The notes under the pieces: model-generated
The model's input: only the letters and a program-made list of their open reading frames with translations
The model's database searches: none
What the model was told of the DNA's origin: nothing
Shown here: one piece after another, positions 5,585 to 56,113 of the stretch
How the letters are laid out: each line of letters begins with the position of its first letter
Position numbering within the stretch: the first letter of the stretch is position 1
NCBI GenBank assembly: GCA_038065415.1
Contig: JBBTRA010000006.1
Location: 15,262-79,261, forward strand
DNA from: Patescibacteria group bacterium
GTDB lineage: Bacteria; Patescibacteriota; Minisyncoccia; Phycocordibacterales; PALSA-1337
DNA: 64,000 nucleotides
Direction: 5' to 3'
Made by a program: the position numbers and the translations under genes

Positions 5585-5745
5585 AGTTGGCCTTTCGTTG
5601 GTGAAACAGTGTGTGTCAAAAAACGACTTGTTCAGTCTCGAACATTACTTATTCAAATAGGTTTTGTCAATAGCACACACTCGGAGTCAAATAAGGGCTA
5701 TTCACCTACGCCAGAGCTGTGCCATCTGATATAATTGATCATAAT

Positions 5746-7494: not shown

Positions 7495-7499
7495 AAACA

Positions 7500-8717: not shown

Positions 8718-8719
8718 CT

Positions 8720-10534: not shown

Positions 10535-10549
10535 GGTATAATCAAGCTG

Positions 10550-11173: not shown

Positions 11174-11177
11174 CACC

Positions 11178-12692
11178 ATGAAACAGGAAATCAATAATAA
11201 CAATCGAAAATGGGTACAGGCACATTCAGGTATGGTCCTCGTGAATGTGCTCATATTCGCCACGATCGCAGTTACAGTGACGACTGGTCTGGTCAATTGG
11301 GGAGCTACTGTTCTCAAGACAACTAGGACACTAGATGCTCGTGAGCAAGCATTCCAAGTTGCAGAGGCAGGGATAGAATATTATCGGTGGCATCTCGCGC
11401 ATGCACCGACTGACTATCAGGATGGTACGGGAGCACCTGGTCCCTATGTACACACGGTACTAGATGCTGATGGTGATATGGTGGGGAGTTATTCGTTGAC
11501 GATAACTCCTCCGGCTACAGGATCGACGATCGTAAGGGTCCGTTCGACAGGTACCGTAGTAGTTGATCCGAGCATTTCACGAACGATACAAGCGACTCTC
11601 GCTATACCATCCCTCGCAAAGTATGCAGTCGTAGCGAATGCAGCCATGCGTTTTGGTGAGGGGACGGAAGTGTTCGGCCCTATTCATTCGAACGCCGGTA
11701 TTCGTTTTGATGGATTGGCACATAATATCGTCACCAGTGGAGTGGCAAGCTATGACGATCCTGATCACGATGAATCAGGATCTGAGAGATTGGAGTATGG
11801 TGTGCATACCCACGTTGCTGCACCACCTGGATCTGGAGTCAATGATTCATATCGACCAGCAGAGATGCCTCCGGCGACTCCTCCGAACAGGGCAGATGTA
11901 TTTATGGCGGGGAGACAGTTTCCTGTACCGACATTTGATTTCACGGGATTGACTACAGATTTGTCTGCTATGAAGTCTAATGCTCAGGCGTCGGGAAGGT
12001 ACTATGCTCACTCGGGATCGCAGGGGTACCATATCGTGCTCAAAACAAACGACACATATGATTTGTATCGTGTGAACTCTCTTCGCTCTGCACCGAATAA
12101 CTGTACCAATACGGCAAACCAGACCAACTGGGGAACATGGAGTGTCAATTCGCAAACTCTCATCGCTTCCAACCAAACCTTTCCCGCAAACGGCATCATT
12201 TTCCTTGAAGATCATGTGTGGGTGGATGGGACGATAAATGGTGCTCGTTTGACGATCGCTTCAGGAAGATTCCCTGATAATGTGACGACGCGCACAGATA
12301 TCACCATCAATGACGATCTTCTGTATACGAACTATGATGGTACCGACGTGATCTCTCTTATTGCGCAGAGGAATATCAATGTAGGACTTTGGAGTCAGGA
12401 TGATTTGCGCATCGATGCCGCACTGGTTGCTCAGAACGGTAGAGCAGGACGGTGGTACTATGAAAATGATTGTCGTACGACAGGAGGGGGAGGGCAGAAT
12501 TATTATGTACGTAATCAGCTCACACTCTACGGAATGATCGCCACCAATGAGCGATACGGATTCGCATATACGGACGATACAGGATATACCAATCGAGACA
12601 TCATATACGATAGTAATCTCCTGTACGGCCCACCACCGTCATTTCCACTGACTTCGAGTCAGTACACGACTATCTCTTGGCAAGAGATATAA
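11178..12692 (+). CDS. PilX-like pilus-associated protein (N-terminal TM plus PilX_N-like helix)
   Basis: N-terminal hydrophobic segment followed by REQAFQVAEAGIEYYRWHL, which resembles the PilX N-terminal domain; 504 aa, same operon as pilBC. Confidence 0.55.
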   Translation: MKQEINNNNRKWVQAHSGMVLVNVLIFATIAVTVTTGLVNWGATVLKTTRTLDAREQAFQVAEAGIEYYRWHLAHAPTDYQDGTGAPGPYVHTVLDADGDMVGSYSLTITPPATGSTIVRVRSTGTVVVDPSISRTIQATLAIPSLAKYAVVANAAMRFGEGTEVFGPIHSNAGIRFDGLAHNIVTSGVASYDDPDHDESGSERLEYGVHTHVAAPPGSGVNDSYRPAEMPPATPPNRADVFMAGRQFPVPTFDFTGLTTDLSAMKSNAQASGRYYAHSGSQGYHIVLKTNDTYDLYRVNSLRSAPNNCTNTANQTNWGTWSVNSQTLIASNQTFPANGIIFLEDHVWVDGTINGARLTIASGRFPDNVTTRTDITINDDLLYTNYDGTDVISLIAQRNINVGLWSQDDLRIDAALVAQNGRAGRWYYENDCRTTGGGGQNYYVRNQLTLYGMIATNERYGFAYTDDTGYTNRDIIYDSNLLYGPPPSFPLTSSQYTTISWQEI

Positions 12693-30413: not shown

Positions 30414-33400
30414 ATGAAAAAATCAATCTTCTCGTTCGTCATCCCGCTCGCGCTCTTCTCGCTGGCGGTTTTTGCTGCACCGGGGAACGTTGGGGCGCAG
30501 ACCTATGAATGTCCGGTAGGGTATACGTGCGTTCCTGCGAGCACGAGCACTCCTACTATAACAGTACTTTCACCTAGTGGAGGAGAGGTGTATTCACTTG
30601 GTAAAGGAATACTCGTGACATGGACAAGTCAAAATATAGCATCAGACCAGTCTATGACTATTGGGTTGCGAAATACGGCGACGGGCAAAGATTACTGGGT
30701 AGCGGATACTCTCAATGATGGTAACGAGATTATTTCCGTAGAGAAGGTGTCAGAAGCTTTAGAAGCCGGCATGTATAAGTTATTTATAAAAACAGCCATT
30801 TTTATTAATGGCGATAGTATTCATGGTTGGAGCAATTCATTTACCCTGACCTCTTCGACAAATCCCCCGACTGTCCCTTCGGTTTCCGTATTCTCCCCAA
30901 AAGCCGGCGAGATACTGGTTCAGGGTACACAAATACACATAGGTTGGAAAATGAACCAGTTTCCGTTGACTCAAAAATTGAGGATTGATCTTATGGTAGT
31001 TTTGGGAGATGCTCAAAATGGCAATATTGGCAAACAAATAGCGCTCGATGTTCCTAATACTGGCTCCTACGTCTGGACCGTGAAGTCGATAGAGCCTTTC
31101 TTTGATTCTGAATCCAATAGGATGGTAACTCCTATAGGTAAATATACGATTATGGTTTCTTGTGCGTATAATGAAGCGGGGTGTAATATGACACCGAACT
31201 TCATAGAAAGTGGAGTATTTAATATCGCCTTCCCAGTTACCCCTGTCCCTTGCTACACCTTCTCCACTAACCTTCAGCTCGGTTCACGGGGCGCTGATGT
31301 CGCTGCTCTGCAGACATTCTTGGTTGCTAAGGGCTTCAAGATTTCTGATCTCTCGGTCGGCCGCGGTTCCGAAAAGGGTTATTTTGGTCGCTCTACTTTC
31401 GAGGCACTCAAGAAATATCAAGAGAGCGTTGGCCTTCCAGCAACAGGATTCTTTGGTCCTCTGACACGAGCCAAGGTTAATGCGGACTGTTCAAATCCGT
31501 CGCCAGCTGAAGTTACGCTCACTGCTCTTCAGGTTGGGTACGAAGGCCAGTATCCCGCCTTCACCATATCTGCATCGTCTGCAAATAAGGTTCCAAGCTA
31601 TTGGGATTTGAAACTGGACTGCCCTAAGGGGGTCGACGCGATGATGAAGGGGGGAGGATGCGGTGCAACCTCACGTTTCATGGGATCTCTGCTCAACCTG
31701 ACATCTCTCACATTCAATAATCCAGGTAGGACCGAGGCGAGAGTTACCGTTACGGCGTCAGCCTATGACACTGCGGGTGCGCGCATCGGTCAAGCGAGCA
31801 TGCCTATAGTTGTTCCGGTCAATACGACTTTGAGCAAGAACTCAGTTAAGGTTACTCGTCCAGCAGCCGGTGAAGTGCTGAGCACAGGTATGCAGTACAA
31901 GATCGTTTGGACCACAAACTCTCTCGACAAAGACGCACTCTTTGACATCACATTGTTTGCAGACAATGGAAAAGGTTTGATTGCAGAAGGTCTTACGACG
32001 GCGCAGGCGAGCTGTACAGGCGTGAATTTTGAGAAAAAAGGAGGCCCTCTCTATACCTGTATTACAGGGTGGACACCGACCGAAGGGTCAGTGAAGGCTC
32101 AACTTGCTGTTAGCAAGCGCGGTACGAGCGAAGTTGGATATTCGGGTAGCTTTTCCATAGCATTCCCAGTGACTCCAGCAATAAACCTCGTGTCGATTCC
32201 GAATAGCTCAACTATTCCAAATAGTTTTGACTACGTTATTACTTCTGCGGGATCTGCATTTGATCGGATTGTGTTGCGTGCGGAATGTAATGACGGAGAA
32301 ATTTCTATTGGATCAAAGGGGGGTATGTTCTGCGGAGAGAATATTACAATAAATCTCACCGCCCCGGCAGGCAGGTATGTATTTCCGGTCACTTTCGAAA
32401 GCAAGGATGGCAAGAGCCATACAGTTGGAATGACTGTGACGGCGTACACAGGTGCTAGTATCGTAGGTGCGGACAAGGACGCTGTGACTGTCACTCCATC
32501 TACAAATCCACCAAAGCCTGCCATTCACACAATTATTTCGCCTAATGGAGGTGAGACCTACAATACAGGCGACACCGTTAACATCAAGTGGAGCCCTTCG
32601 GGAACTTCTGGTGATACAGTGAAGATCGAAGTCGGCTATGTTCATCCTGATAGCACCTATCCTGGTGGCACATATGTAGAGGATTGGATTATTGATAAAA
32701 CCGCGAATACAGGATCCTACAGTTGGGTCATACCTGAATATTATGGTACCGGTATCCGTACAGGTTCATTCTCAATCAAAGTTACTTCTGTCGCGAATGG
32801 CATGGATTATTCGGACAATAAGTTCACTATAAAACAGGGTGTTAACAGGCCAAACATAGTTGTTTCAAAGCCGGCTAACGGTGATGTGTATAAGAAGGGA
32901 GCTACGGTAAATATAGTGTGGCCATCTTCAGGTGATTCATATGGTGCTTCGTTGTTGAGGGTTGAGGATCCGTTGTTCCTCAGGTTTATGCTCAATACCG
33001 GAGGACTGAATGGTAATCTCACGTGGACGGTGCCTACGGATATACCAGATGCAAAGGATTACTACATACGAATAAACGAAGGAGTGTACCGCAATAAGAC
33101 AGGGTACAGTGGTATCTTCTCTGTTGGTTCAGATGTGCCTCCAGCTCAACCTACCATCAATGTTGTCACCCGTCTTGGTGGCCGTGTCTTGTCTTCGAGC
33201 GCTACAAATCCATGCGTGTCGAGCCTTGCTGGTCCGACAGGGAACAATACTGCAGGCTGTGTACGCACACTCACCAATCAGGCTCCTGGTACATACTCGG
33301 TAGTCTGGTACGGTGGGTATCCTGCAGGAGCTGATACGAGCAAGAAGCCAGTCATCACAGGAGCCCAGACGCTCGGTAGCAGTCCGATAACCTTCTACAT

Positions 33401-33500
33401 TGACTTCAGTCCAAAGCCGATCATCGAGGTCTACAATGGATCGAGCATATCTGCTTCTATCTGGGATGCAATCAATGAGTACTGGGAGAATAACCCATAA
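30414..33500 (+). CDS. Giant secreted surface protein with five Ser/Thr-rich GPI/Kre9-like repeat modules and one peptidoglycan-binding domain
   Basis: Signal peptide MKKSIFSFVIPLALFSLAVFA. Repeats of the type SPxGGExxxxGxxxxIxW: VLSPSGGEVYSLGKGILVTW, FSPKAGEILVQGTQIHIGW, TRPAAGEVLSTGMQYKIVW, ISPNGGETYNTGDTVNIKW, SKPANGDVYKKGATVNIVW. PG_binding_1-like LGSRGADVAALQTFLVAKGF...ALKKYQESVGLPATGFFGPLTRAKV. Confidence 0.6.
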   Translation: MKKSIFSFVIPLALFSLAVFAAPGNVGAQTYECPVGYTCVPASTSTPTITVLSPSGGEVYSLGKGILVTWTSQNIASDQSMTIGLRNTATGKDYWVADTLNDGNEIISVEKVSEALEAGMYKLFIKTAIFINGDSIHGWSNSFTLTSSTNPPTVPSVSVFSPKAGEILVQGTQIHIGWKMNQFPLTQKLRIDLMVVLGDAQNGNIGKQIALDVPNTGSYVWTVKSIEPFFDSESNRMVTPIGKYTIMVSCAYNEAGCNMTPNFIESGVFNIAFPVTPVPCYTFSTNLQLGSRGADVAALQTFLVAKGFKISDLSVGRGSEKGYFGRSTFEALKKYQESVGLPATGFFGPLTRAKVNADCSNPSPAEVTLTALQVGYEGQYPAFTISASSANKVPSYWDLKLDCPKGVDAMMKGGGCGATSRFMGSLLNLTSLTFNNPGRTEARVTVTASAYDTAGARIGQASMPIVVPVNTTLSKNSVKVTRPAAGEVLSTGMQYKIVWTTNSLDKDALFDITLFADNGKGLIAEGLTTAQASCTGVNFEKKGGPLYTCITGWTPTEGSVKAQLAVSKRGTSEVGYSGSFSIAFPVTPAINLVSIPNSSTIPNSFDYVITSAGSAFDRIVLRAECNDGEISIGSKGGMFCGENITINLTAPAGRYVFPVTFESKDGKSHTVGMTVTAYTGASIVGADKDAVTVTPSTNPPKPAIHTIISPNGGETYNTGDTVNIKWSPSGTSGDTVKIEVGYVHPDSTYPGGTYVEDWIIDKTANTGSYSWVIPEYYGTGIRTGSFSIKVTSVANGMDYSDNKFTIKQGVNRPNIVVSKPANGDVYKKGATVNIVWPSSGDSYGASLLRVEDPLFLRFMLNTGGLNGNLTWTVPTDIPDAKDYYIRINEGVYRNKTGYSGIFSVGSDVPPAQPTINVVTRLGGRVLSSSATNPCVSSLAGPTGNNTAGCVRTLTNQAPGTYSVVWYGGYPAGADTSKKPVITGAQTLGSSPITFYIDFSPKPIIEVYNGSSISASIWDAINEYWENNP

Positions 33501-38338: not shown

Positions 38339-38896
38339 ATGATCCTCAAGAATGGAAGGCGGGTACAACTGATCGCTGAAGTGAAGGTATGCTCGCCTTT
38401 TGGTTTTACATCTGAAAAAAGCTGGGATGAACTGTTCATGATTGCTGAAAAAGCGGGCGATATGATTTCTATACATACTGATCCGCGTTGGGGAGGGTCT
38501 TTTGAGTTGATTCGAAAAGCGAAGTCATTGACGCAAAAACCGATTCTCGCAAAGGGAATACATGAGACGGATGATCTGGTTGAACAAGCTGTTCAAGCCG
38601 GCGCGGATCTTGTACTAGTTGTTGGTAGGGTGCCGCAAGTTCACATTGAGAAGTGCGTGATCGAACCCTACTCTTTAGAAGAATTGAAGACGATCCCGTA
38701 TGACATAAAAGTGGTCTGGAATAGCCGTGATCTCAAGACGGGCGGACTGAAAAAGGAGACATTCGAGCAAACTCGAACGATATTTCCTGGTTGGCTGTGT
38801 CAGGCAAGCAATATCAAGACGACCGATGACATCAAAGAAGGTGCAGATGCGGTGTTGGTAGGGGAGAGGTTGGAAGGGTTTGTTGAGTCGTTGTAA
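38339..38896 (+). CDS. Indole-3-glycerol-phosphate synthase-like TIM-barrel protein (short, orphan)
   Basis: IAEVKVCSPFG resembles the IGPS hallmark E(I/F)KRxSPSxG; 185 aa. Confidence 0.4.
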   Translation: MILKNGRRVQLIAEVKVCSPFGFTSEKSWDELFMIAEKAGDMISIHTDPRWGGSFELIRKAKSLTQKPILAKGIHETDDLVEQAVQAGADLVLVVGRVPQVHIEKCVIEPYSLEELKTIPYDIKVVWNSRDLKTGGLKKETFEQTRTIFPGWLCQASNIKTTDDIKEGADAVLVGERLEGFVESL

Positions 38897-41456: not shown

Positions 41457-42605
41457 TTAAAGAAACTTCCTGATAAATCTGATCGCAAAGAAAAGTATCT
41501 TGTCGGTGAAAAATTTCTTGTCCCATTCATCCTTCCTGACCTCTCGTGATCCGTGCATGTCACGGACGAAGTGGGCCGAGAGCTCTTCGACGAACTTCAC
41601 ATTGGTAGTGATGATGTTCGCTTCAAAATTGTAGAGGAGGCTGGCACTATCGAGATTCATGGATCCGACGGTTGCCCATTCACCGTCGATGACGACAGCT
41701 TTGCTGTGAATCACATTGCCTTCATAGAGGAATATACGTGCACCCGAATGAAGAAGTGTCTTGAAATATGAACGAGCTGCAAGATCGAGCGTGGGGTAGT
41801 GGTCGGTACGTTCGGGTAGTATGATCTTCACATCTACTCCTCGATGGGCAGCAAGTTTAATAACACGAGCAAGTCGGCGAGTTGGTACGAAGTAGGGAGT
41901 GGTAATGTACACATACTTACGGGCACTGCGGAGAGCCTCGATGAGTTCGGCATATACATGTCTGCGCTTGGGAGCAGGGTAGTTGGTAACATACCGGAAT
42001 TCATGGTCACGGATGCGGACTCGCGGAGGGAGTGGGGTATGCTCGGTGGCACGGGCCCACATACGATCGAAGGCATTGCTCATTTCACGCACCACGGCCC
42101 CTTCGAAACGGGCATTGGTGTCGCGCCAACCCTTCATGCGATCGCTTACGCAGATGCTGCCAGTGTAGCCAATATGTTCGTCGATCACGAGCGTGCGACG
42201 GTGATTGCGGAGATACCATGAGCGGAAGTTTGGCACCTTGAAATATCCCGGAATAAGAGTTTTCCAGAAAACAAGTTCGATGCCGCGCTTCTTGAGGTCC
42301 TTGGCGATGTCAGATCCGAAGAATGAGAAGCTGCCCGCGGCATCCCAGAGGAACCGGACTGTCACTCCTGTCGCTGCACGCTCAGCACAAATATCGATGA
42401 GCTTCTTACCGTACTCATCATTGGTGAATATGAATTGTTCGAGCGCTATGCTCTTTTTTGCTTGCGCACAATCTGCGAGCATTGCTGACCAAGCCTCTTC
42501 GTTGGTGGCATAGAGGGTCCAGGAGGTGGGGGAGATCATGGGGGTATGATAGCGCAGAATGGAGAGGAGTTCTAATGCGTATGTGCTGGAATAAAAAAGC
42601 CGCAT
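41457..42605 (-). CDS. Phospholipase D / cardiolipin synthase family protein
   Basis: Two PLD domains; second HKD motif IHSKAVVIDGEWATVGSMNLD. Start uncertain: ATG at 42605 or 42539, whereas the track ORF reaches 42686. Confidence 0.7.
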   Translation of the reverse strand: MRLFYSSTYALELLSILRYHTPMISPTSWTLYATNEEAWSAMLADCAQAKKSIALEQFIFTNDEYGKKLIDICAERAATGVTVRFLWDAAGSFSFFGSDIAKDLKKRGIELVFWKTLIPGYFKVPNFRSWYLRNHRRTLVIDEHIGYTGSICVSDRMKGWRDTNARFEGAVVREMSNAFDRMWARATEHTPLPPRVRIRDHEFRYVTNYPAPKRRHVYAELIEALRSARKYVYITTPYFVPTRRLARVIKLAAHRGVDVKIILPERTDHYPTLDLAARSYFKTLLHSGARIFLYEGNVIHSKAVVIDGEWATVGSMNLDSASLLYNFEANIITTNVKFVEELSAHFVRDMHGSREVRKDEWDKKFFTDKILFFAIRFIRKFL

Positions 42606-42633
42606 GGGATCACCTATGCGGCTGAGGAAGATA

Positions 42634-43158
42634 TTAGAGCAAGATAACTTCAATGAGCTCATGTCGCTCCAGCACCTCATGCTCATAGACGCGTAGTACT
42701 TGTTCGCGGTTGATCCGTCCCGTCGCTGAGCTGATGTTGGCCTTGCCGTAGATACCTTCGATGACGGAGATCTTTTGTTCGGTGGTCATAGCCCCGTGCT
42801 CCTCATAGAGCTCATCGAGGAATTTTTGCGCTTCTTCGGGCCATGCACCCGATACTTTCGGCAGTCCAAGAATTTCACAACAGATCCTCTGTGCAAATAA
42901 AGCTTCAGTTGAGGAAGCGTCTTCTGATGATGCTCCGGAAACATCCGGATGTTGAAGGCTGGGGGTTATGGCAAGATGTTCTTCGAGTGCCGCCAAAACT
43001 TCCAAGGTCATACCTCTCTCTGAGGAATGAAGTAAAACATTGGTGACATGATAGGCGTATGTCGGTCCGTAGCTACGGAATACCGTCAAGGCACGATCCC
43101 ATGAATAGCCCAGTTTCATTTCCAGCATTGCCCGGAACTGCTGCTCGTTGATTTTCAT
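42634..43158 (-). CDS. Hypothetical protein
   Basis: 174-aa ORF with no recognised motifs. Confidence 0.4.
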   Translation of the reverse strand: MKINEQQFRAMLEMKLGYSWDRALTVFRSYGPTYAYHVTNVLLHSSERGMTLEVLAALEEHLAITPSLQHPDVSGASSEDASSTEALFAQRICCEILGLPKVSGAWPEEAQKFLDELYEEHGAMTTEQKISVIEGIYGKANISSATGRINREQVLRVYEHEVLERHELIEVILL

Positions 43159-46052: not shown

Positions 46053-47984
46053 ATGCCCGATAATACATCTCCGAACCAGCAGGGAAGCAATCGACCCAAC
46101 AAACAGGGTCGAAAAGGGTTGATGCCGCCGCGTATGAACTTCTTGAGCACGGTAGTTATTGCACTTCTCGCATTCCTGCTTCTCGCGGGTTTGTATTCAG
46201 AGTTTTCAGGTGACTCCACAGCGACTCCCGCAACGTCGCTCTCCACGATAGCTGCTGATGTTGAGCAGGGTTCTATTTCCAAGTTGACGATACAGGGCGA
46301 TACAATCGTTGCTGAATATATTGATAAGACGCAGAAGTCCGCACAGAAGGAGGGGGACGCTTCTCTTACCGAGACACTCTCTCGTCTCGGCGTCTCATCT
46401 GCGCAGCTTGCTTCTACTACGATTATGGTCGAGAACCCGAGCGGGTTTGGCTACTGGCTCGGTCAGTTGGCACCTTTTCTTGCACCGATACTCTTCCTCG
46501 TTTTCTTCATATGGATGCTCTCCAGACAGGTCAAGGGTGCTGGTGTGCAAGCTATGTCATTTGGTCAGTCAAAAGCACGCATCACATTACCGGATGATCA
46601 GCGTGTGAAAGTGAAGTTCAAGGATGTCGCTGGAGCCAAGGAGGCCAAGCAGGAACTTTCTGAGATCGTGGACTTCCTCAAGAATCCCAAGAAGTTCATT
46701 GAGATTGGAGCGGAGATACCAAAAGGTGTGCTTCTCATGGGAGCTCCGGGTACGGGTAAGACGCTCCTTGCGCGTGCGGTTGCGGGCGAAGCAGGTGTTG
46801 CATTCTTTGCAATCTCTGGTTCAGAATTCGTGGAGATGTTCGTCGGTGTCGGTGCTTCACGTGTGAGAGATCTCTTCAAGATGGCCAAGGAAGCTGCTCC
46901 GGCGATCGTCTTCGTCGATGAGATCGATGCAGTTGGACGTGCCCGCGGATCTGGCATGGGCGGCGGCAACGATGAAAGGGAGCAAACACTTAACCAGATT
47001 CTTGTGGAGATGGATGGCTTTGAACCGAACATGAAGGTCATCGTCATGGCTGCAACCAACAGACCTGACGTGCTCGATCCAGCACTCCTTCGTCCAGGAC
47101 GATTTGATCGCCGTGTAGTCATCGACATACCTGACCGTGGTGACCGCCAGGATATATTGAAGATTCATGCTGCAAAGAAGAAGTTAGCCGCTGACGTCAA
47201 TCTCGGCATCATTGCAGAGCGCACGCCAGGATTCTCGGGAGCAGATCTTGCATCGCTTATGAATGAAGGTGCTATCCTGGCTGCCCGCGAAGACCGCACG
47301 GAGATCGGTCAGTTCGATCTTATCCGTTCAATCGAAAAGGTTATGCTTGGTCCGGAGCGTCGCAGTCATATATTGAGCCCGCAGGAGAAGGAAATCACCG
47401 CGTATCACGAAGCTGGCCACGCTATTGTTGCCTCGGTTCTGCCTCATGCGGATCCGGTGCACAAGATATCGATCATTTCTCGTGGTCGTGCAGCGGGGTA
47501 CACACTTAAGCTGCCGCTTGAAGATCGCAAACTCCAGTCACGTAAAGAATTCCTCGATGACATCGCTGTTTCACTTGGAGGATATGTAGCTGAGCGTATG
47601 GTGTTTGGCGATTTCACAACAGGTGCATCTAATGATCTCCAGGTATCGACTGCGCTCGCGCGTAGCATGGTGACGCAGTATGGAATGTCAGAGAAGATCG
47701 GGCCAGTTGCTCTCGAGGAGCCGCGCGGGAAGGTCATGTTCGGCATGGGCGTCGAGGCGCGTGACTACTCAGAGAAAGTTGCGGCTGAGATCGATGCAGA
47801 GGTGACGCGTATCATGACCGAGGCGCGTACCCTCGCAGAAAAAGTATTGAACGAACACAAGACCGTCTTCGAGATTGTTTCCAAGAGACTGATCGAAACT
47901 GAAACTATCGAGCGTGAGGAATACGAAACGCTCATCATGGCGCAGGGGATAGTGCTCAAGAAGAAGTGGGAACCAAAAGTATAA
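46053..47984 (+). CDS. ftsH: ATP-dependent zinc metalloprotease FtsH
   Basis: Two N-terminal TM helices, AAA+ ([13 protein letters not shown]), zinc-binding HEAGHA. Confidence 0.95.
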
Positions 47985-48027
47985 GTAGGTTTACTGCTGC
48001 CGTTTTTTTGTTTAGTATTAACGTATC

Positions 48028-48101
48028 CCGCCCTTAGCTCAGTTGGTTAGAGCACAGAGCTTATACCTCTGGGGTCCTTGGTTCGAATCCAAGAGGGCGG
48101 A
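48028..48101 (+). tRNA. tRNA with anticodon UAU (tRNA-Ile reading AUA)
   Basis: Cloverleaf: acceptor ccgccct/agggcgg, D-arm gctc..gagc, anticodon stem cagag/ctctg with loop cTTATac (anticodon T48062-A-T48064), T-arm cttgg-ttcgaat-ccaag, discriminator A; CCA not encoded. Confidence 0.8.
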
Positions 48102-48161
48102 CAGGTTTTTGCACAGCTTCTATTGTTGACACGGTGATCTACATGGTAGAATAGAACCTAC

Positions 48162-48743
48162 ATGAAACGCGGCTTCACACTGATAGAACTCTTGGTTGTT
48201 ATATCCATCATGAGCATGCTGAGCAGTATACTTTTTGCCTCAATTGCTTCTGCGCGTATGAAGGGGAGAGACGGGCTCAGGATATCTCAGCTCCATCAGA
48301 TAGATCTTGCGGTACAACTCTATATGACATCGAACAACAGGGCTCCTGATCTTCAGGGAACTTGTCCTTCTTCTGCAACGCCAGATAATTCAACTGTTAC
48401 CAATTGTGTCGCGAATGCTACCACCAACTCGACAGCATGGGATCGATTCAAGTCGGACATCCAACCATATATGAAGACGGTTCCAAGTGATCCGTGTATA
48501 GCAAATAGCTCGTGTATAAGTGGGGCATCTGGATACACGCTTGGATATACCTATGTAGCTCCTGCTGCAGTGAAATATCAGTGCGCCGAGGATTCGGGGG
48601 GCACATGTCCACAGACCAGTACAGTGCTCAATCAGTACTATCAACTCTACGCTCCGCTTGAGAGACAAAATATGCCTACAGGGGTAAAGTCTCTCGGTTC
48701 TGCGTTCTTCACACCACCATCTCCTGGAGGATATGGCTTCTAG
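48162..48743 (+). CDS. Type IV pilin (prepilin with MKRGFTLIELLVV leader)
   Basis: Class III signal MKRG|FTLIELLVVISIMSML; C-terminal Cys pairs; shares the motifs GYTYVAP..YQLYAPLER with the three downstream pilin paralogs. Confidence 0.85.
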   Translation: MKRGFTLIELLVVISIMSMLSSILFASIASARMKGRDGLRISQLHQIDLAVQLYMTSNNRAPDLQGTCPSSATPDNSTVTNCVANATTNSTAWDRFKSDIQPYMKTVPSDPCIANSSCISGASGYTLGYTYVAPAAVKYQCAEDSGGTCPQTSTVLNQYYQLYAPLERQNMPTGVKSLGSAFFTPPSPGGYGF

Positions 48744-50205
48744 GTACATGTCCATCTTACGTGTGCCACGGGTATGGCTATATATAGGGGTTGCAACTTT
48801 TTTGGTTGCAGCTGCATTTATCTGGCTACCTTCTGTTCGTGTTGTATTGCACTCGATCGTCAATGTATTTGCAACTGGTCGAACAGGTACCAAGGCGCTG
48901 ATATTCATGGCGTATGTGATATCAGTTTCAGGTATCCTCTATGTGCGTTCTAAGAAAACAGAGTCTACGCATACGCTACGGTACTGGAAGGTGTTCACTG
49001 CTACGAGCGCTCTTGGTGCGTATGTTCTTAATTTTTTCACATATCTGTGGACGATGAAGCTCTGGCATATCCCGGTGTTCACGTATTCACTCATTTATAA
49101 CAACGGTTCATTCACATCATTTCAATTCGTACATAATCATGCAACTAAGGGAGCTATCGCTGTTCTGACACAGCTACTCCCAGAAGGGGTCTTCGGCCAT
49201 CTCGATGCAGGCACAGCTCTTCTTGGGATAATTCCGAATGCACTCTTATCGCTACAGGCGCTACTTGTTCTGGGATGCATCATCGGTATATACGGAATAT
49301 GGCATGCTGTGCTTCCAAGGATCACAGCTCTCTCTTCGAGACGAGCAGTAGTATATGTAGCGATGTTGATCCTGAGTTCGTTCATGGTACTCAAGTCTCT
49401 TCTTGATGGGGGAATCTTCAGTTTTGAAGCTGTTGTCGGTTTGTCCTTCTTCTTTTTCCTCATATCGAAAGGTTCGACTCGGGCACGGAATACACTGCTC
49501 GTGGTCAATGGTGCATATTTCATCCTTCTTGGCTTACTGTATTGGGTGGGCTACTTTGCCACAGATAGTAACTATGGATATCATAATTTCTCTTTCGTCA
49601 CTATCTTGCTTGTAATGACAGCTTTGTATGGGATATATGAATTTGGGAAGACAAGGCTCACGATGCTCGTACTCATGATGGCGGTCATACCTCTGTGCGT
49701 TCAGGTGTACAACGGCTTGACTGTATTTGAGTACAGAAATATTTCGGTAGAAAAGGATGACATCGCGTACATTTTCTCATATGAGAACCTTGATATTCCG
49801 GGGTATACGTTGCGCCATAGTATAGGGAAGATCAATCTCTATACATTCTCGCCGAGGGAGCCTATGGCTATAGCGGACATCATCCCGCATACAGGGTTTG
49901 CTGACAATATGACGCCAGTTAGTGTTGCGTGGAAGACGTGCGTACCACCTGCGCCCCGAACGAGCTACACACTCAATGTTGTTTCTCCGAATGCGATCGA
50001 TATGGATAACGAGGTTACCCAGTTGTATCGAATGGACGCGGTACCACTTGGTACATATGACGATGGTTTTCATCGATACTCGGTCACTATATCGGCGCAT
50101 CCATGTTCGGTTCCTCAGCTCATCGTATTTGTACAAGAAATCTTAGCGAAGCATTTTGGGGGATTCGCTATATACGATATACAGCAGTTCGAAAACGGCG
50201 AATAA
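48733..50205 (+). CDS. Large polytopic membrane protein translationally coupled to the pilin (candidate pilin-modifying O-oligosaccharyltransferase-like enzyme)
   Basis: 490 aa with at least 10 TM helices and a soluble ~120-aa C-terminal domain; start overlaps the pilin stop. Function inferred from position only, by analogy to tfpO/pilO downstream of pilA. Confidence 0.5.
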   Translation: MASRYMSILRVPRVWLYIGVATFLVAAAFIWLPSVRVVLHSIVNVFATGRTGTKALIFMAYVISVSGILYVRSKKTESTHTLRYWKVFTATSALGAYVLNFFTYLWTMKLWHIPVFTYSLIYNNGSFTSFQFVHNHATKGAIAVLTQLLPEGVFGHLDAGTALLGIIPNALLSLQALLVLGCIIGIYGIWHAVLPRITALSSRRAVVYVAMLILSSFMVLKSLLDGGIFSFEAVVGLSFFFFLISKGSTRARNTLLVVNGAYFILLGLLYWVGYFATDSNYGYHNFSFVTILLVMTALYGIYEFGKTRLTMLVLMMAVIPLCVQVYNGLTVFEYRNISVEKDDIAYIFSYENLDIPGYTLRHSIGKINLYTFSPREPMAIADIIPHTGFADNMTPVSVAWKTCVPPAPRTSYTLNVVSPNAIDMDNEVTQLYRMDAVPLGTYDDGFHRYSVTISAHPCSVPQLIVFVQEILAKHFGGFAIYDIQQFENGE

Positions 50206-50206
50206 C

Positions 50207-50710
50207 ATGATGATTGATATACTACAGGCGGCCATCATATTTGCGCTGCCATGTTGGGTGGCGAATATGGCATTTTCCCTCATTGTGCCCCTGAAGAGGG
50301 TAGTGCCTCTAGTGGCACAGATCGATCGACCACTTGATCACGGAGCGTCTTTGGGTGGTTCACGTATTTTTGGGGATTCCCGGAACTATGCAGGACTTAT
50401 TCTTGCGCTTGTTCTTGCATTATCGTGGGGGATTGCGGCACATGATCCACTGGTTGGAGCAAAGATTATGCTTACCTTTGTGGGGGCGGTGCTCGGCAGT
50501 TTCATCAAACGTAGGTTTAGGCTACGTTCAGGGCAGAAGATGCCCGTGCTCGATCAGCTTGATTATATGTTTGTAGTCGGAGGTATCTGGTATTTTTTTG
50601 GTTTTGAGAGTGGGGCTGTTGTCTGCATGGCGATGCTGATCACCCTTATTGGTCAACCGACTATTTCGTATGTAGCTTTTTTGCTCCGGTTGAAGGACAA
50701 GCCTTACTAG
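50207..50710 (+). CDS. CarS/DUF46-like CTP-transferase family membrane protein (CDP-archaeol synthase / polyprenol-kinase-like)
   Basis: LPCWVANMAFSL, GSRIFGDSRNYAG and GAVLGSFIKRRFRLRSGQKMPVLDQLDYMF match the CarS (DUF46) signature GDxxGSFxKRRxxxxxGxxxPxxDQLDF. Confidence 0.6.
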   Translation: MMIDILQAAIIFALPCWVANMAFSLIVPLKRVVPLVAQIDRPLDHGASLGGSRIFGDSRNYAGLILALVLALSWGIAAHDPLVGAKIMLTFVGAVLGSFIKRRFRLRSGQKMPVLDQLDYMFVVGGIWYFFGFESGAVVCMAMLITLIGQPTISYVAFLLRLKDKPY

Positions 50711-50739
50711 CACCTCCACATTCGAAAGTATCTTTAGTG

Positions 50740-50890
50740 TTATACTATTCCCATGAAACGAGGCTTCACTCTCGTAGAACTCCTGGTGGTTATATCCATC
50801 GTATCGATGCTCGCTAGTATCGTGATGGTGCAGATTAGTCTTGCGCAAGCAAAAGGCCGTGATTCACTGCGTACACAGCAAATCAGGCAA
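50740..50890 (+). repeat. Near-identical ~150-nt block (promoter plus pilin 5' end), copy 1
   Basis: Matches 51645-51795 with about 5 mismatches, starting at the TATACT -10 box and running through codon ~45. Confidence 0.85.
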
Positions 50891-51607
50891 ATAGATACGG
50901 CTATGCAATTGTATGTAGAGACATATAAGAGGGCACCCTTGGCAGATAGTTTGACGGGGTGCGATATTCAGTCAGAAAATCCGACCGAATATGAGGATGT
51001 CTCTTCCTGCTTTGCAGTATCGACAAATGGGACTGAGACTCAAGAGCAGAATTGGGATACCTTGAGAACAGAACTTCAAGAATTCATACGGTTACCAGAA
51101 GATCCGTGTGGCACATGTGTTTCGGGGTCAGATGGATTTCTTATCGGGTATACATATGTTGCTCCCTATGCGATGCAGTACTACTGCTACACAACAGGGA
51201 CATGTATAGCGACCAATGAGTCCTATCAGGTGTACGCCCCCCTTGAGCGTCAGACGATGCCGACCGGTAGTGAAGGATCATCACAAAACTACGCATCTCC
51301 AAATCAGCCTCCCGCTTCATATGCTTTGAGTACGCCCACGGGCTTAGGAGCAATTCCATGGCAACCTCCTTCTAAACTGCTTTCATGGCAACCGTCGACA
51401 GGGGCACCTGAGGGTGCGTCAATACTCTATTATGTTCGAAAGGAAGGAAACCCTCAGGAACATCTGGTCGAAGGCACAACTTCTTTTTGGGCACGAGTCG
51501 GGGATTATGGGTGGATTGCTCCATATTGTTGGACTGTGCGCGCAGAGGATCCTGAAAATGGACTTTACTCGGATCGTAGTGAACCTTCCTGTGTATCAGC
51601 GCCGTAG
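50753..51607 (+). CDS. Type IV pilin paralog
   Basis: MKRG|FTLVELLVVISIV...; conserved SSCFAVS, GYTYVAP, YQVYAPLER motifs. Confidence 0.85.
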   Translation: MKRGFTLVELLVVISIVSMLASIVMVQISLAQAKGRDSLRTQQIRQIDTAMQLYVETYKRAPLADSLTGCDIQSENPTEYEDVSSCFAVSTNGTETQEQNWDTLRTELQEFIRLPEDPCGTCVSGSDGFLIGYTYVAPYAMQYYCYTTGTCIATNESYQVYAPLERQTMPTGSEGSSQNYASPNQPPASYALSTPTGLGAIPWQPPSKLLSWQPSTGAPEGASILYYVRKEGNPQEHLVEGTTSFWARVGDYGWIAPYCWTVRAEDPENGLYSDRSEPSCVSAP

Positions 51608-51644
51608 TACCCAGGTGAGTTTGGAAAGCTAGCATGACCATATG

Positions 51645-51795
51645 CTATACTATTCCCATGAAACGAGGCTTCACTCTCGTAGAACTCCTGGTGGTTATAT
51701 CCATCGTATCGATGCTCGCTAGTATCGTGATGGTACAGGTTAGTTTGGCGCAAGCAAAAGGCCGTGATTCACTGCGTACACAGCAAATCAGGCAG
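51645..51795 (+). repeat. Near-identical ~150-nt block (promoter plus pilin 5' end), copy 2
   Basis: See copy 1. Confidence 0.85.
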
Positions 51796-52911
51796 ATAGA
51801 TCTTGCGACTCAGATGTATATAGAAGCGAATGGTCATGCTCCGTATCTAGAAGATCTCCAAAACGATGTTCCGCCGACCCTTTGTGACATTCAGTCTGAA
51901 ATTCCTGAAGAAAGCGAGGCATCGGCATGCTTTGCTGTGTCGTCTCAGGGTGTAGATACCCCAGCAGGGAGGGCGTGGGAAGCTTTCAAGAAAGATCTCG
52001 CGCCATACATGAATGTGCCCAATGATCCTTGCGGCAGTTCATGTGCCTCGGCTTCGGATTTTCCGATCGGATACACGTACGTGTCGCCACTTGCTATGCA
52101 GTACTACTGTTCCTATTCCGGCTGTATTGTGACTGACGATTCGTATCAGCTCTATGCTCCGTTGGAACGCGAGTCGAACCCGAGTGGTAATAGTGGATCT
52201 TCGAGCAACTATTCCCATAATCCAGGGAGTTCATCGGGAGGAGATGGCGGGCAAGATGATTCTGTACCTCCGAGCGTGCCAGCTAATGTAGACGTTACCT
52301 TGAATTCACTCTGGACCGGAGGGTCGATTGGTATCGAGATCACTTGGGACGCATCTACAGACGATGATTCGGGAATTGCGGGCTACAAAGTATCGCCGTT
52401 GGATGATAACTCATATAGTGGCTATGATGATGAAGGAAATCCGATACCTACGGATCCAACACCGGGAACTTCTCGAGATACGCACGGCCTGATCTGGTCG
52501 ATGGGCATGAGTTTCTGTTATAGCGTCAGAGCCTATGATACTGCAGGCAATCCATCTGGGCCGAGCGATGAGGTTTGTACCCCGAATATACCAGCATTCT
52601 TCGGGGCCCCTACGGGCGTTACCGCTATCCGTCAAGGTAATCAGGTAACGGTCAATTGGAATGCGGCTGCAAACCTAACATCTGACGCGGTCGTCAAATA
52701 CCAGGTCTATCATCCAGGCGGCTTCCTCATAACAGAGACCACCCAGTTGTCTGCTACCTATGATGCGGTGGGTTGGGGTAACTGCGTCAGGATTGCTCCG
52801 GTGGGGTATGTCAATTTTGAGGGTTCTGAATGGCTCCTGTATAACGACAATAGTGGTTTCGGACTACCTCCAATCTCAAGTGCTACCACATGTGCATCTC
52901 CAGGTATTTAA
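51658..52911 (+). CDS. Type IV pilin paralog with a C-terminal fibronectin-III-like extension
   Basis: ATG 51658 sits 6 nt after TATACT (the track start 51634 is rejected). N-terminus is identical to the previous pilin for ~45 aa. C-terminal about 180 aa contains PPSVPANVDVT...SIGIEITWDASTDDDSGIAGYKV, which is FN3-like. Confidence 0.8.
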   Translation: MKRGFTLVELLVVISIVSMLASIVMVQVSLAQAKGRDSLRTQQIRQIDLATQMYIEANGHAPYLEDLQNDVPPTLCDIQSEIPEESEASACFAVSSQGVDTPAGRAWEAFKKDLAPYMNVPNDPCGSSCASASDFPIGYTYVSPLAMQYYCSYSGCIVTDDSYQLYAPLERESNPSGNSGSSSNYSHNPGSSSGGDGGQDDSVPPSVPANVDVTLNSLWTGGSIGIEITWDASTDDDSGIAGYKVSPLDDNSYSGYDDEGNPIPTDPTPGTSRDTHGLIWSMGMSFCYSVRAYDTAGNPSGPSDEVCTPNIPAFFGAPTGVTAIRQGNQVTVNWNAAANLTSDAVVKYQVYHPGGFLITETTQLSATYDAVGWGNCVRIAPVGYVNFEGSEWLLYNDNSGFGLPPISSATTCASPGI

Positions 52912-52923
52912 TTTATAACGAAT

Positions 52924-53754
52924 ATGAACGGTATACATACTAAAGCATTCACTTTGATAGAGCTCCTGGTAGTCATCTCCATTCTCTCAATGTTGGCCAG
53001 CGTGATACTCGTCAATACCGCCTCGGTGCGCGCATCAGGCCGAGATGGTGTGCGTGTGCAGCAGATACGCCAGATAGATCTGGCAGTGAAGTTATACACT
53101 GAGGCGAATGGGCATGCTCCATTGTTGACTGGTTGTGATGTTCAGTCTCAGAATCCATCTGTGTCGCAAGCGCAGGCCTCGTCTTGTTTCGCAGTTTCAA
53201 CCGGAGGACTAGCATGGGATTCTTTTAAGAGTCAGATTGCTCCATATATGCCACAGACACCAGGCGATCCTTGTCCTACAGGGTGCACATCTCCTTCAGG
53301 TTTTCCTATCGGATATGCGTATGGAGCACCGCTCGCCATGCAATATTATTGCGGCCTGGCCGGGTATTCGTGCACCGCTAACAGGAAGTCGTATCAACTA
53401 TATACACCACTTGAGAAGAGTCCCAATCTCGTCGGCACAAAAGATGTAGGTGACTTTTTCACACCAACGATGGCTGCGCCCGTTATAACAAATTTCAATT
53501 CATTCCCGTTCTTCAATGGACCGCAACAAACCCCAGGACGTCATTTTGTCTGGCAAGTTACCAATGCGCCGAGCTGCATACTATCGGATAGTTTTGGTAC
53601 TATTCCTATAACAACAGTGCTGATTAGTGAGGCGGGGAATGGGTCACAGTCATTCATAGGAGCAAGCTTCTTTGGTCCGAACGATATAGTGACTGTTACG
53701 TGTTCGACGGCTGGAGGTACTGCTACAGCTCAATATATAGTTCCTGCGCAGTAG
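52924..53754 (+). CDS. Type IV pilin paralog (Ala at the -1 position)
   Basis: MNGIHTKA|FTLIELLVVISILSML; conserved SSCFAVS, GYAYGAP, YQLYTPLEK. Confidence 0.75.
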   Translation: MNGIHTKAFTLIELLVVISILSMLASVILVNTASVRASGRDGVRVQQIRQIDLAVKLYTEANGHAPLLTGCDVQSQNPSVSQAQASSCFAVSTGGLAWDSFKSQIAPYMPQTPGDPCPTGCTSPSGFPIGYAYGAPLAMQYYCGLAGYSCTANRKSYQLYTPLEKSPNLVGTKDVGDFFTPTMAAPVITNFNSFPFFNGPQQTPGRHFVWQVTNAPSCILSDSFGTIPITTVLISEAGNGSQSFIGASFFGPNDIVTVTCSTAGGTATAQYIVPAQ

Positions 53755-53767
53755 GTTGTGAGCATTC

Positions 53768-56113
53768 TTATTCGAAGTGACTTTCTTTTGCTGATCGATC
53801 CACAACTTTTTTGAGCAATGGATATTTTCCGAGAGAGGTATCTTCGGCGATAAGCTTCATTGCCTCATTTCTCGCCGCTTCTACCATTTTGAGATTTTTG
53901 AGTGCTTCCATAGCTACATCTGAGACTCCCCATTGGCGTAGACCAGAGAGTTCACCGGCACCGCGCTGGGTGAGGTCGAGTTCGGCCAACTCAAAACCAT
54001 TCTTGGCTGTAGCGAGGGCCGTCAGACGCTCGATTGACTTGGCGGAATTGGTCTCAGTGAATGCATAACAGTAGGCCTGGTGCGCACTTCTCATGACGCG
54101 TCCGCGGAGCTGGTGGAGCTGGGCGAGACCAAACCGCTCAGCACCTTCGATGATGATGACTGTCGCGTTCGGTACATTGACTCCGACTTCAACGACTGAG
54201 GTGGCGCAGAGGATATTGATCTTACCAGATTTGAAGTCGGCCATTGCACGATCTTTTTCGTGAGGCTTCATCTTGCCGTGCAGGATACCGACTTCATATT
54301 CAGGGAATACCGACCGACTGAGACGAGCCGCTTCTTCCTTTACTGACTTGGCGATAACGGCTGCTTCTTTGTCCGGGTCGGGCTCATCGATGCGTGGACA
54401 GATGACATAGAGTTGTCTGCCGTCCGCGAGTTCTCTGCGGATCTTTTCATATGTTTCGCTACGCTTGTCCGGTAGAACGAGCTCGGTGATGATGGGCTTG
54501 CGTCCTGCAGGGCTCTGGTCGAGGATGGTGAGATCAAGGTCGCCATAAATAGTCAGTGCGAGGGTTCGTGGGATGGGTGTAGCGGTCATGGAAAGGAGAT
54601 GGGGAGCAAGTGCATTTCCGTGCTCCATGTTCTTCTGCACAAGTCGTTTGCGTTGGCCGATACCGAAGCGATGCTGTTCGTCGATGATGGCATATGCAAG
54701 CCGCTTGAACTTCACAGACTTCTGGATGAGTGCTTGGGTGCCTATGACTGCCGCGATCGAACCGTCGGCTACCCATTTTAAGAGTTGAGACCGTGATATA
54801 TCGGTCCAACTTTTTGGATTCACCTTGGAAGGGAACACGCGGCATCCGGAGCCTGTGATAAGTGCAATGCGTATCGGCATGTATGAGAAATACTGGATGA
54901 ATGATTCAAAATGCTGGGTGGCTAATATTTCCGTGGGACACATATATGCGATCTGAAGACGCGCGTTCATTACTGCATATGCAGTTGCTGCTGCGACGGC
55001 CGTCTTGCCAGAACCGACGTCTCCTTCGAGGAGTCTGGACATGGGCTGTTCACGTGACATATCGCCGACGATAGTCTCGATGGCTCTTTTCTGTGCATCA
55101 GTGGCCTGGAATGGGAAGCGGCGGATGAATTCATGCACATGTCCCATATCGGTCTCGAGAACGAATGAAGGGTACTGTTCGTAGAGCTTGCGAGCCTGTT
55201 GGCGTCCGAGCTGTATCATGAATATCTCTTGGAATGAGAACCGTTTGCGTGCAGACAAGGCATCATCGTGTTTCTGGGGAGCGTGCATCCAGATACATGC
55301 AGTCTTGATCCCTGGAAGGTTATATTTCTTCAGGATGTCCGCCGGAATGGGATCTTCGAGTGCATCCAAGATGCCTGTCTTGAAGAGCTTCTGTAGAGAA
55401 TGGTACATCCAAAGAGAGCTGATACCTCGGGATTCAGGGTAGACAGGATACAAGGTGTGAGATTCGCCATCAGTTCCGAAGAGTGAGTCGCCGACACCTA
55501 CCGGAAGTTTGTCGATGAGTTCGATTTTTGGGTTAGAGAAGTATAACTTCGCATTATCAGGCTCCACAAAAACAGGCTCTTCACCCACGATAGCCTTTGC
55601 TCGCATGGAGGAAGAGCTCGCAAAGGCTTCTTTTCTCGGCGTTGTGTTCGTGGTGAACGGGATACTATGTCCCAACGCCTCCGAAGAGGGATCAGAACCT
55701 ATTTTTGTTTCGCTTTCAATGCTCCTTACTTCTTTCCCCTTACTCCTCCGCTGACTGACCTTACCCTCGATACGGACGAGGGCGCCCTCGGGGGTCATTT
55801 TTGCGATATAGGGTTGATTGAACCAGATGCACTGGATCGTACCGCTCTCGTCTTCGACGGTTGCTGTGGCCATGGTCATCTTGGTCTTGAAACCCTTGGT
55901 TGCTTTGAGGTGGGTGATTTTGCCGAATATGGCAACCGCATCGCCTTTTTTGAGGGAGCTTATGCTCCGCGCCTCGGCTGTGTCACCATAGCGTACGGGA
56001 AAATGATAGAGGAGGTCTTCTAGGGTGTGTACACCAAGCTTCTTCAGTGCATCCTTCTGGATTGGTGTGATACGGAAATGCTCGGATACAGGTATATCGG
56101 GAGAGATGGGCAT
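53768..56113 (-). CDS. recG: ATP-dependent DNA helicase RecG (with a ~90-aa low-complexity insertion in the N-terminal wedge region)
   Basis: Helicase motifs GDVGSGKT, DEQHRFG and others; N-terminal wedge domain; 781 aa. Confidence 0.9.
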   Translation of the reverse strand: MPISPDIPVSEHFRITPIQKDALKKLGVHTLEDLLYHFPVRYGDTAEARSISSLKKGDAVAIFGKITHLKATKGFKTKMTMATATVEDESGTIQCIWFNQPYIAKMTPEGALVRIEGKVSQRRSKGKEVRSIESETKIGSDPSSEALGHSIPFTTNTTPRKEAFASSSSMRAKAIVGEEPVFVEPDNAKLYFSNPKIELIDKLPVGVGDSLFGTDGESHTLYPVYPESRGISSLWMYHSLQKLFKTGILDALEDPIPADILKKYNLPGIKTACIWMHAPQKHDDALSARKRFSFQEIFMIQLGRQQARKLYEQYPSFVLETDMGHVHEFIRRFPFQATDAQKRAIETIVGDMSREQPMSRLLEGDVGSGKTAVAAATAYAVMNARLQIAYMCPTEILATQHFESFIQYFSYMPIRIALITGSGCRVFPSKVNPKSWTDISRSQLLKWVADGSIAAVIGTQALIQKSVKFKRLAYAIIDEQHRFGIGQRKRLVQKNMEHGNALAPHLLSMTATPIPRTLALTIYGDLDLTILDQSPAGRKPIITELVLPDKRSETYEKIRRELADGRQLYVICPRIDEPDPDKEAAVIAKSVKEEAARLSRSVFPEYEVGILHGKMKPHEKDRAMADFKSGKINILCATSVVEVGVNVPNATVIIIEGAERFGLAQLHQLRGRVMRSAHQAYCYAFTETNSAKSIERLTALATAKNGFELAELDLTQRGAGELSGLRQWGVSDVAMEALKNLKMVEAARNEAMKLIAEDTSLGKYPLLKKVVDRSAKESHFE

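Follow-up and report, generated by a model that had tools for sequence, protein, structure and literature searches.

A CarS-family gene in a pilin-associated cassette

We analyzed a 64,000-nucleotide stretch of contig JBBTRA010000006.1 from a Patescibacteria group bacterium (hereafter the window), in which one gene (50207–50710, forward strand) encodes a relative of CarS, the archaeal CDP-archaeol synthase (CDP, cytidine diphosphate). This CarS-like gene stands last in a cassette that is headed by a short type IV pilin-like gene and continued by the gene of a large polytopic membrane protein, here called BIGTM or simply the partner; a tRNA gene marks the upstream boundary of the cassette (Table 1). 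A first-pass annotation, made from the letters of the DNA alone, had placed the gene inside a pilin array of a bacterial genome, and both points are borne out. The cassette pilin and the three longer pilin genes that lie downstream of the CarS-like gene all carry the N_methyl motif, and the gene content of the window is bacterial and typical of Patescibacteria (transfer-messenger RNA and SmpB, FtsH, RecG, ribosomal proteins, a PilB/PilC/pilin cluster and ComEC). In addition, the identical protein has been deposited from a metagenome-assembled genome (MAG) of a Patescibacteria group bacterium.

The CarS-like open reading frame (ORF) is intact and starts with ATGATG, one base past the TAA stop codon of the upstream gene. 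Its 167-residue product is matched by the Pfam profile PF01864 (CarS-like) at 61.8 bits (E=1.1e-16; gathering cut-off 22) and, in a sequence search of the PDB, by 5GUF, the Aeropyrum pernix enzyme ApCarS and the only solved CarS (E=7e-9); both matches are far above chance level. A profile built from the bacterial clade described below reached 5GUF at E=4e-18, and the PDB sequence searches yielded 5GUF only. An AlphaFold2 model of the protein (predicted local distance difference test, pLDDT, 96.6; predicted template modelling score, pTM, 0.90; alignment of 136 sequences) retrieved the same structure from the PDB using Foldseek (E=2.5e-5, probability 1.00, template modelling scores 0.67/0.70, 28% identity), and beyond it nothing was found under E=4. 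The earlier assignment to the CarS (DUF46) family is therefore upheld by profile, by sequence and by structure. A better fit to CdsA was not seen, as the protein has no match to PF01148 in Pfam at E≤0.1, and TmCdsA (4Q2E) was not retrieved by Foldseek at E≤10. At the same time, the NCBIfam CarS equivalog NF003114 gives 78.1 bits, under its cut-off of 148. Taken together, the gene is a genuine bacterial relative of archaeal CarS, albeit a divergent one.

The deposited entry ('MAG: CDP-archaeol synthase [Patescibacteria group bacterium]') is identical to the protein analyzed here but begins at Met21 (147 residues; 50267 versus 50207), and the relatives P0009, P0010, P0158 and L170 are likewise called at 147 residues in deposited models. 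A start at Met21 deprives the protein of its conserved first transmembrane helix and, with it, of the family-invariant N20. Because the relatives keep the first 20 residues, N20 among them, the start at 50207 is the better one.

Active-site residues and phylogenetic position

The first-pass annotation had described three CarS segments in the protein. The N-terminal one is present as LPCWVANM and the P.LDQLD segment as PVLDQLDY, but the hallmark GDxxGSFIKRR is not literally there: the protein reads GAVLGSFIKRR (G93–R103), with Ala94 in place of the Asp. Together with this 'GD' Asp, three more residues that are (near-)invariant in archaea are replaced, so that the CarS hallmarks are not all present.

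To describe these differences by position, we compared 21 bacterial CarS-like and 64 archaeal sequences from species-representative genomes. N20, D44, G56, S98, F99, K101, R102, R103 and D116 are kept in all 21 bacterial sequences, and S98, F99, K101, R102, R103 and D116 are invariant in both sets, although the invariance of the GSFIKRR motif is partly by construction since the archaeal set was retrieved with this peptide pattern. D119, a position absent from the residue table of the 21 and 64 sequences, is conserved in 13/13 sequences of a separate alignment (A4). The core motif S-F-x-K-R-R ... D-x-x-D is thus found in the window protein as S98-F-I-K-R-R103 and D116-Q-L-D119.

The four replacements in the window protein are K59R, D94A, H150Q and N154S, and all of them fall at positions where the two sets differ. 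Position 59 is Lys in 63 of the 64 archaea and in none of the 21 bacteria; position 94 is Asp in all 64 archaea versus four of the bacteria, which mostly have His; position 150 is His in 64/64 versus 11/21; and position 154, Asn in 63/64 archaea, is Asn in a single bacterial sequence and mostly Cys in the others. Two further positions are characteristic of the bacterial clade, namely 117, which is mostly His (Gln in the window protein), and 120, which is mostly Tyr (18/21) and in no case Phe. Most clade members outside the sub-clade of the window protein accordingly carry the pattern G-H...D-H-x-D-Y together with a Cys at the position of the archaeal N154, and the window sub-clade instead has A/T/V, Q and S at the G-H, D-H and Cys positions. 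The two new His residues and the one Cys, which would lie around the metal/CTP (cytidine triphosphate) site in most clade members, may reflect a metal or a substrate different from that of archaeal CarS.

In a neighbour-joining (distance) tree of the same sequences, the 21 bacterial proteins form one clade apart from the 64 archaeal ones, the bipartition being recovered in 93 of 100 bootstraps. In this comparison, the window protein does not branch within archaeal CarS.

The comparison shows a CarS-like enzyme whose putative CTP-phosphate/metal core is intact and whose active-site pocket appears remodelled, the roles of the replaced residues being assigned from conservation only. As for the lost 'GD' Asp, D219 of TmCdsA, the first Asp of its Asp-Asp metal dyad, is Gly in active eukaryotic CDS enzymes (PMC7018664); if the Asp of CarS is the equivalent of D219, as we assume here, its loss need not abolish catalysis. 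The shortfall against the equivalog, the separate clade and the clade-wide replacements suggest a function separate from that of archaeal CarS.

These observations bear on the literal reading of the deposited name, according to which the gene would encode a true CDP-archaeol synthase and the bacterium would have archaeal-type ether lipids or a mixed membrane or, in a variant, would activate lipids scavenged from an archaeal host. Besides the name itself, this reading can draw on the features that the protein shares with ApCarS, with AfCarS of Archaeoglobus fulgidus and with PF01864 (a size of ~165 residues, the five-helix fold, the P..ANxx segment, D44, G56, S-F-I-K-R-R and D116-x-x-D119, i.e. 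the CarS fold and the KRR/DxxD core), as well as on the GGGPS and DGGGPS homologues reported in one Parcubacteria genome (PMC7852524). It is difficult to reconcile with a bacterial gene that forms its own clade, scores under the equivalog cut-off and has replaced K59, D94, H150 and N154, each of which is found in at least 63 of the 64 archaea. The search for GGGP and DGGGP synthases suggested in the first-pass annotation covered the 64-kb window; among its ~60 ORFs, a Pfam scan found no GGGPS, DGGGPS or UbiA-type gene and no glycerol-1-phosphate dehydrogenase, and a bacterial cardiolipin-synthase-like gene is present. Moreover, the pairing with the partner gene described below is absent at archaeal CarS loci (0/92), which argues for a role different from that of a true CarS. 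We regard a true CDP-archaeol synthase as very improbable.

The partner protein, the conserved gene pair and the pilin

Using profile hidden Markov models of the CarS-like and partner proteins on loci from 185,579 species genomes and JGI metagenomes, the retrieval of which was limited by the peptide pattern used, we found the partner gene adjoining the CarS-like gene in 36 of 39 non-redundant bacterial loci, as compared to none of the 92 archaeal CarS loci. Contigs with CarS-like relatives at 69% down to ~30% identity have the same neighbour and unrelated flanking genes. The partner lies upstream in most loci, often with start and stop codons overlapping by 4 nucleotides, but it is found downstream on the same strand in five loci (L029, L059, L101, L114 and L127) and on the opposite strand in three (L021, L061 and L093). 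This variable gene order and the differing flanks indicate that the linkage is not just shared synteny. A look-up from the partner side, starting from the homologue P0157, also lands on the triad of pilin, partner and CarS-like gene, and in an all-against-all clustering of the ORFs of 19 bacterial loci the only recurrent families were the CarS-like protein (19 loci), the partner (17) and the pilin (14). Overall, the CarS-like gene and its partner form a two-gene membrane module specific to Patescibacteria.

The module occurs in Parcubacteria, Saccharibacteria, Doudnabacteria, CPR3 and unclassified Patescibacteria. The pilin–partner–CarS-like cassette, which we otherwise saw only at Patescibacteria loci, is also present in two MAGs that bear the label 'uncultured Gammaproteobacteria bacterium' (L025, CAZMMW010000044.1; L035, CAZAOE010000011.1); their CarS-like proteins cluster with those of CPR3, and these contigs are probably mis-binned or mislabelled. 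The bacterial clades hold ~60 of the best 150 cluster representatives (50%-identity clusters, from 1.84 billion), and the pattern used gave 15 bacterial matches among the 185,579 species genomes. A few dozen such clusters among 1.84 billion representatives indicate a sporadic module and thus an accessory function. A scan of positions 47900–53900 for promoters and terminators gave no richer result than shuffled sequences.

The partner encoded in the window has 490 residues (the deposited model begins late, at 48748 versus 48733, and has 485), within a family of ~420–507 residues. It has no Pfam, NCBIfam or PDB match; all 19 family sequences are empty in Pfam at E≤1, and the 19-sequence profile has no match in the PDB at E≤10. 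Word-indexed searches for further homologues, with the single sequence and then with the 19-sequence profile, gave only three proteins. The alignment of the 19 sequences, which are 16–53% identical to the window protein, has 13 invariant columns, including G49, H134, H136, K139, D158, G160, F217, D225-G226-G227, C403 and C458, with H134, H136 and K139 forming an HxHxxK motif. Hydropathy predicts nine transmembrane segments, and the loops assigned to the inside average 0.26 Lys and Arg per residue over the family, versus 0.058 for those assigned to the outside, which supports an N-in/C-out topology by the positive-inside rule. In this predicted topology, the invariant H134, H136, K139, D158 and D225-G-G fall in outside loops, and all invariant polar residues as well as a C-terminal alpha/beta domain of ~150 residues with a Cys pair, predicted to be of a disulfide type, face the outside of the cell. 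These sequences define a new family of membrane proteins, whose candidate catalytic residues stand out clearly.

Several known families were considered for the partner and rejected. A prepilin peptidase would have its conserved residues on the other face of the membrane and a GxGD motif, which the partner does not have; an exosortase or archaeosortase would have a conserved Cys in the membrane part, where the partner has none; the signature of CDP-alcohol phosphatidyltransferases (DGxxAR...GxxxDxxxD) is absent; and for PAP2 and HKD phospholipase D either the defining motif or the Pfam match is missing.

The gene that heads the cassette encodes a type IV pilin by its N-terminal cleavage/methylation motif, Glu5 and hydrophobic helix; its prepilin motif (PF07963, 31.2 bits; TIGR02532, 33.8 bits) reads MKRGFTLIELLVVISI. 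A homologous short pilin of a single family (170–200 residues) adjoins the pair in ~20 of 31 assessable non-redundant loci. It usually lies directly upstream of the partner gene, and it stays with the partner when the latter is on the strand opposite to the CarS-like gene. Of 15 cassette pilins (alignment A8), 11 have an aromatic residue as their last, and those of the near clade have a Pro/Gly-rich tail ending in GGYG[FY]; the three longer paralogues encoded further downstream in the window have no such ending. This tail could be a recognition or modification site, or it could simply be structural.

The presence of a large outward-facing protein next to a pilin gene bears on the role proposed in the first-pass annotation, namely in a polyprenyl or lipid-linked carrier. 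In its polyprenol version, the CarS-like protein would be a CTP-dependent polyprenol kinase, similar to dolichol kinase, or an activator of polyprenyl phosphate that supplies a lipid-linked glycan carrier, and the partner would be a pilin glycosyl- or oligosaccharyltransferase. Dolichol and phytol kinases and yeast Dgk1 share the CTP-transferase superfamily with CdsA and CarS, and as small or medium-sized polytopic proteins that use CTP on a membrane lipid, Sec59/DOLK, VTE5 and Dgk1 would fit a carrier-priming or diacylglycerol-recycling role; no sequence or structure match to them was obtained with the CarS-like protein, for which kinase and cytidylyltransferase chemistry are not distinguishable from sequence. 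The closest solved relative, moreover, acts on a two-chain glycerolipid phosphate and not on a polyprenol. Similarly, the size, polytopic nature, outward conserved residues and position downstream of a pilin gene make the partner resemble TfpO/PilO and TfpW of Pseudomonas aeruginosa and PglL and PptA/PptB of Neisseria. This is a resemblance and not a membership, as the partner has no homology to Wzy_C, GT-C or sulfatase-type transferases, and no Wzy_C, GT-C or other glycosyltransferase family was detected in the 19 sequences in Pfam at E≤1. In addition, its first outside loop lacks a conserved acidic residue, unlike the usual catalytic loop of GT-C enzymes, no pairing with a CTP-dependent enzyme is known from the TfpO/PglL-type systems, one-third of the CarS-like/partner pairs have no adjacent pilin, and no sugar-activating or GT2 gene recurs nearby. 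We consider the polyprenol version decidedly unlikely.

Window context and possible function of the module

The other features of the window are listed in Table 1. A type IV pilus machinery cluster, separate from the cassette, is located at 3018–12692; no prepilin peptidase was seen in the window. The tRNA at the cassette boundary carries a UAU anticodon; AUA is read in most bacteria by a lysidine-modified CAU tRNA, and a UAU isoacceptor is uncommon. The ORF at 38339–38896 partially matches the Pfam profile of indole-3-glycerol-phosphate synthase (46.6 bits, over positions 44–241 of 254) and is far under the TrpC cut-offs of NCBIfam. Tryptophan synthesis is expected to be absent from this genome, and the product has the appearance of a TIM-barrel that has been truncated or repurposed. 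The large protein encoded at 30414–33500 combines PG_binding_1, a bacterial Ig domain and a Kre9/KNH-like domain, and may be a surface protein in host attachment or the cell wall.

Table 1. Features of the 64-kb window (positions in the window; lengths in amino acid residues)
Feature	Position	Strand	Length	Remarks
Sigma-54-type activator, PilR-like	3018–4175	-		
PilB ATPase	5719–7494			
PilC platform	7440–8717			
Pilin-like protein	8720–10534		604	CarboxypepD_reg domain
Pilin	10550–11173		207	
Protein without any family match	11178–12692		504	
Candidate large surface protein	30414–33500	+	1028	
ORF with partial indole-3-glycerol-phosphate synthase match	38339–38896	+	185	
Phospholipase D (PLD) superfamily, closest to bacterial cardiolipin synthase	41457–42686	-		TIGR04265, 240 bits, under equivalog cut-off of 290
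tRNA-Ile(UAU)	48028–48102	+		upstream cassette boundary; ARAGORN 'tat'; Rfam tRNA, 69 bits
Short type IV pilin-like gene heading the cassette	48162–48743	+	193	overlaps the BIGTM ORF by 11 nucleotides as called
BIGTM, polytopic membrane protein, conserved partner of the CarS-like gene	48733–50205	+	490	no family match
CarS-like gene	50207–50710	+	167	five-helix, CTP-dependent membrane enzyme of the CarS family (family-level assignment); Patescibacteria-specific clade
Paralogous pilin with C-terminal extension	50753–51607	+		N_methyl; 47% identity to cassette pilin over shared core
Paralogous pilin with long C-terminal extension	51634–52911	+		N_methyl, residues 10–33; prepilin motif from residue 9
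Paralogous pilin with C-terminal extension	52924–53754	+		N_methyl; 46% identity to cassette pilin

The cardiolipin-synthase-like gene lies 7.5 kb upstream of the CarS-like gene, the syntenic locus L001 has a PLDc_2 gene in a comparable place, and the window gene suggests phospholipid head-group remodelling in the organism. It is also one of the points in favour of a salvage of host lipids, in which the CarS-like enzyme would be the CDP-diacylglycerol synthase of the lineage, replacing or supplementing CdsA and re-activating scavenged phosphatidic acid, while the partner would import, flip or de-head host lipids at the outer face and the pilin would mediate host contact. Patescibacteria lack fatty-acid synthesis and have been proposed to acquire glycerophospholipids from the host and to interconvert them via CDP-diacylglycerol (PMC6031116), no CdsA was found in the 64-kb window, and the conserved residues of the partner face outward, where a host lipid would arrive. 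In a bacterium with diacyl lipids, CdsA/YnbB (TmCdsA, PF01148) would indeed be the most conservative functional analogue, as it belongs to the same CTP-transferase superfamily and performs the same chemistry on a lipid phosphate, with an Asp-Asp metal dyad, the first Asp of which is not required in the eukaryotic enzymes; the CarS-like protein differs from it in having five helices instead of nine, no dimerisation domain and, as indicated above, no PF01148 or 4Q2E match. A general lipid-uptake route would, however, be expected to be near-universal in Patescibacteria, whereas the module is sporadic; a canonical CdsA has been reported in at least one Saccharibacterium, and the 19 partner sequences have no transporter-family signature in Pfam. 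Host-lipid salvage is in our view a rather doubtful explanation of the module.

The near-constant pairing and the frequent pilin point to a specialised cell-surface or lipid-recycling job and not to archaeal membrane synthesis. A role other than bulk membrane lipid synthesis had been suggested by the first-pass annotation, and it fits a sporadic accessory gene that is tied to an outward-facing partner and often to a dedicated short pilin. The reading that we tentatively favour, as a possibility somewhat short of probable, is a cytoplasmic CTP-dependent activation or re-activation of a lipid coupled to an outward-facing transferase acting on the pilin or the cell surface. In this model, the CarS-like enzyme would be catalytically competent but divergent, and one half of a two-gene module rather than a stand-alone lipid-synthesis gene. 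At the cytoplasmic face, it would activate or re-activate a two-chain lipid phosphate with CTP, the most conservative reaction being that of phosphatidic acid to a CDP-diacylglycerol-type product, and an alternative one the CTP-dependent phosphorylation of a free lipid, as by dolichol kinase or yeast Dgk1. The nine-helix partner would use the resulting lipid-linked donor at the outer face and transfer a head-group, a phospho-form or a glycan to the pilin or another surface acceptor, and the lipid by-product would finally be recycled. Such recycling would be valuable because these bacteria cannot make fatty acids and instead salvage and remodel phospholipids (PMC6031116), a context that the cardiolipin-synthase-like gene of the window fits.

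A similar division of labour is known from EptA/MCR-3 with DgkA and from LtaS with DgkB: an outward transferase consumes the head group of a phospholipid, an enzyme at the cytoplasmic face re-activates the lipid, and the genes can adjoin. The protein families differ on both sides, the recycling enzyme would here use CTP, and the partner has no sulfatase-like domain; these comparisons, like those with TfpO, TfpW, PglL and PptA, are analogies and not homologies.

Several observations weigh against the favoured coupling of lipid activation and surface transfer. Substrate and product of the CarS-like enzyme are inferred, and so are the roles of the partner as a transferase and of the pilin as its acceptor. 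The AlphaFold2 model of the partner, built from three sequences, is poor (pLDDT 47, pTM 0.32), and a Foldseek search of the PDB with it gave nothing under E=0.09 and only generic ferredoxin-like matches to the C-terminal domain. Around the 19 clustered loci, no head-group synthase, flippase, glycosyltransferase or sugar-activating/GT2 gene recurs, which leaves the pathway between the two proteins hypothetical. Eleven assessable pairs (eight metagenome loci and L011, L029 and L059) lack an adjacent pilin, and hence the pilin may be a neighbour and not a substrate; by the same count, the core unit is the pair, and the pilin is a frequent but not obligatory third member. In the locus L090, the pair sits between PSP1 and GAPDH/hydrogenase genes. 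Finally, the lost 'GD' Asp could mean an altered or reduced catalysis. A more specific form of the favoured reading is in our estimate unlikely. In it, the pair would be a hitherto unrecognised enzyme system that attaches a lipid-derived group covalently to the dedicated short type IV pilin or to some other acceptor on the surface, the group being for example phosphatidyl, a phospho-head-group or, on a CDP-activated glycerolipid, a pyrophosphate-linked glycan.

CarS is treated as an archaeal marker: PF01864 is part of the archaeal single-copy marker list of a genome-quality pipeline, and bacterial copies are automatically named 'CDP-archaeol synthase'. The copies of Patescibacteria form a clade of their own, in which the active site is remodelled and a partner of an undescribed family is near-constant, and this name is therefore probably wrong; inferences on archaeal lipids in bacteria should not rest on it. 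In the searchable literature, we found no link of CarS or PF01864 to Patescibacteria beyond the GGGPS and DGGGPS homologues of the single Parcubacteria genome mentioned above, noted in a paper on the FCB group. The gene itself is already in the databases; what appears to be undescribed is the clade with its altered active site, the family of the partner, and the module. The module offers a testable handle on the management of membrane lipids in ultra-small epibionts unable to synthesise lipids, and likewise on the tailoring of the type IV pili on which their host contact depends; both are poorly understood. If true, the decoration of a pilin or of the cell surface would be a modification of a new class, in bacteria unable to make their own lipids, and would give a bacterial CarS homologue its first function.

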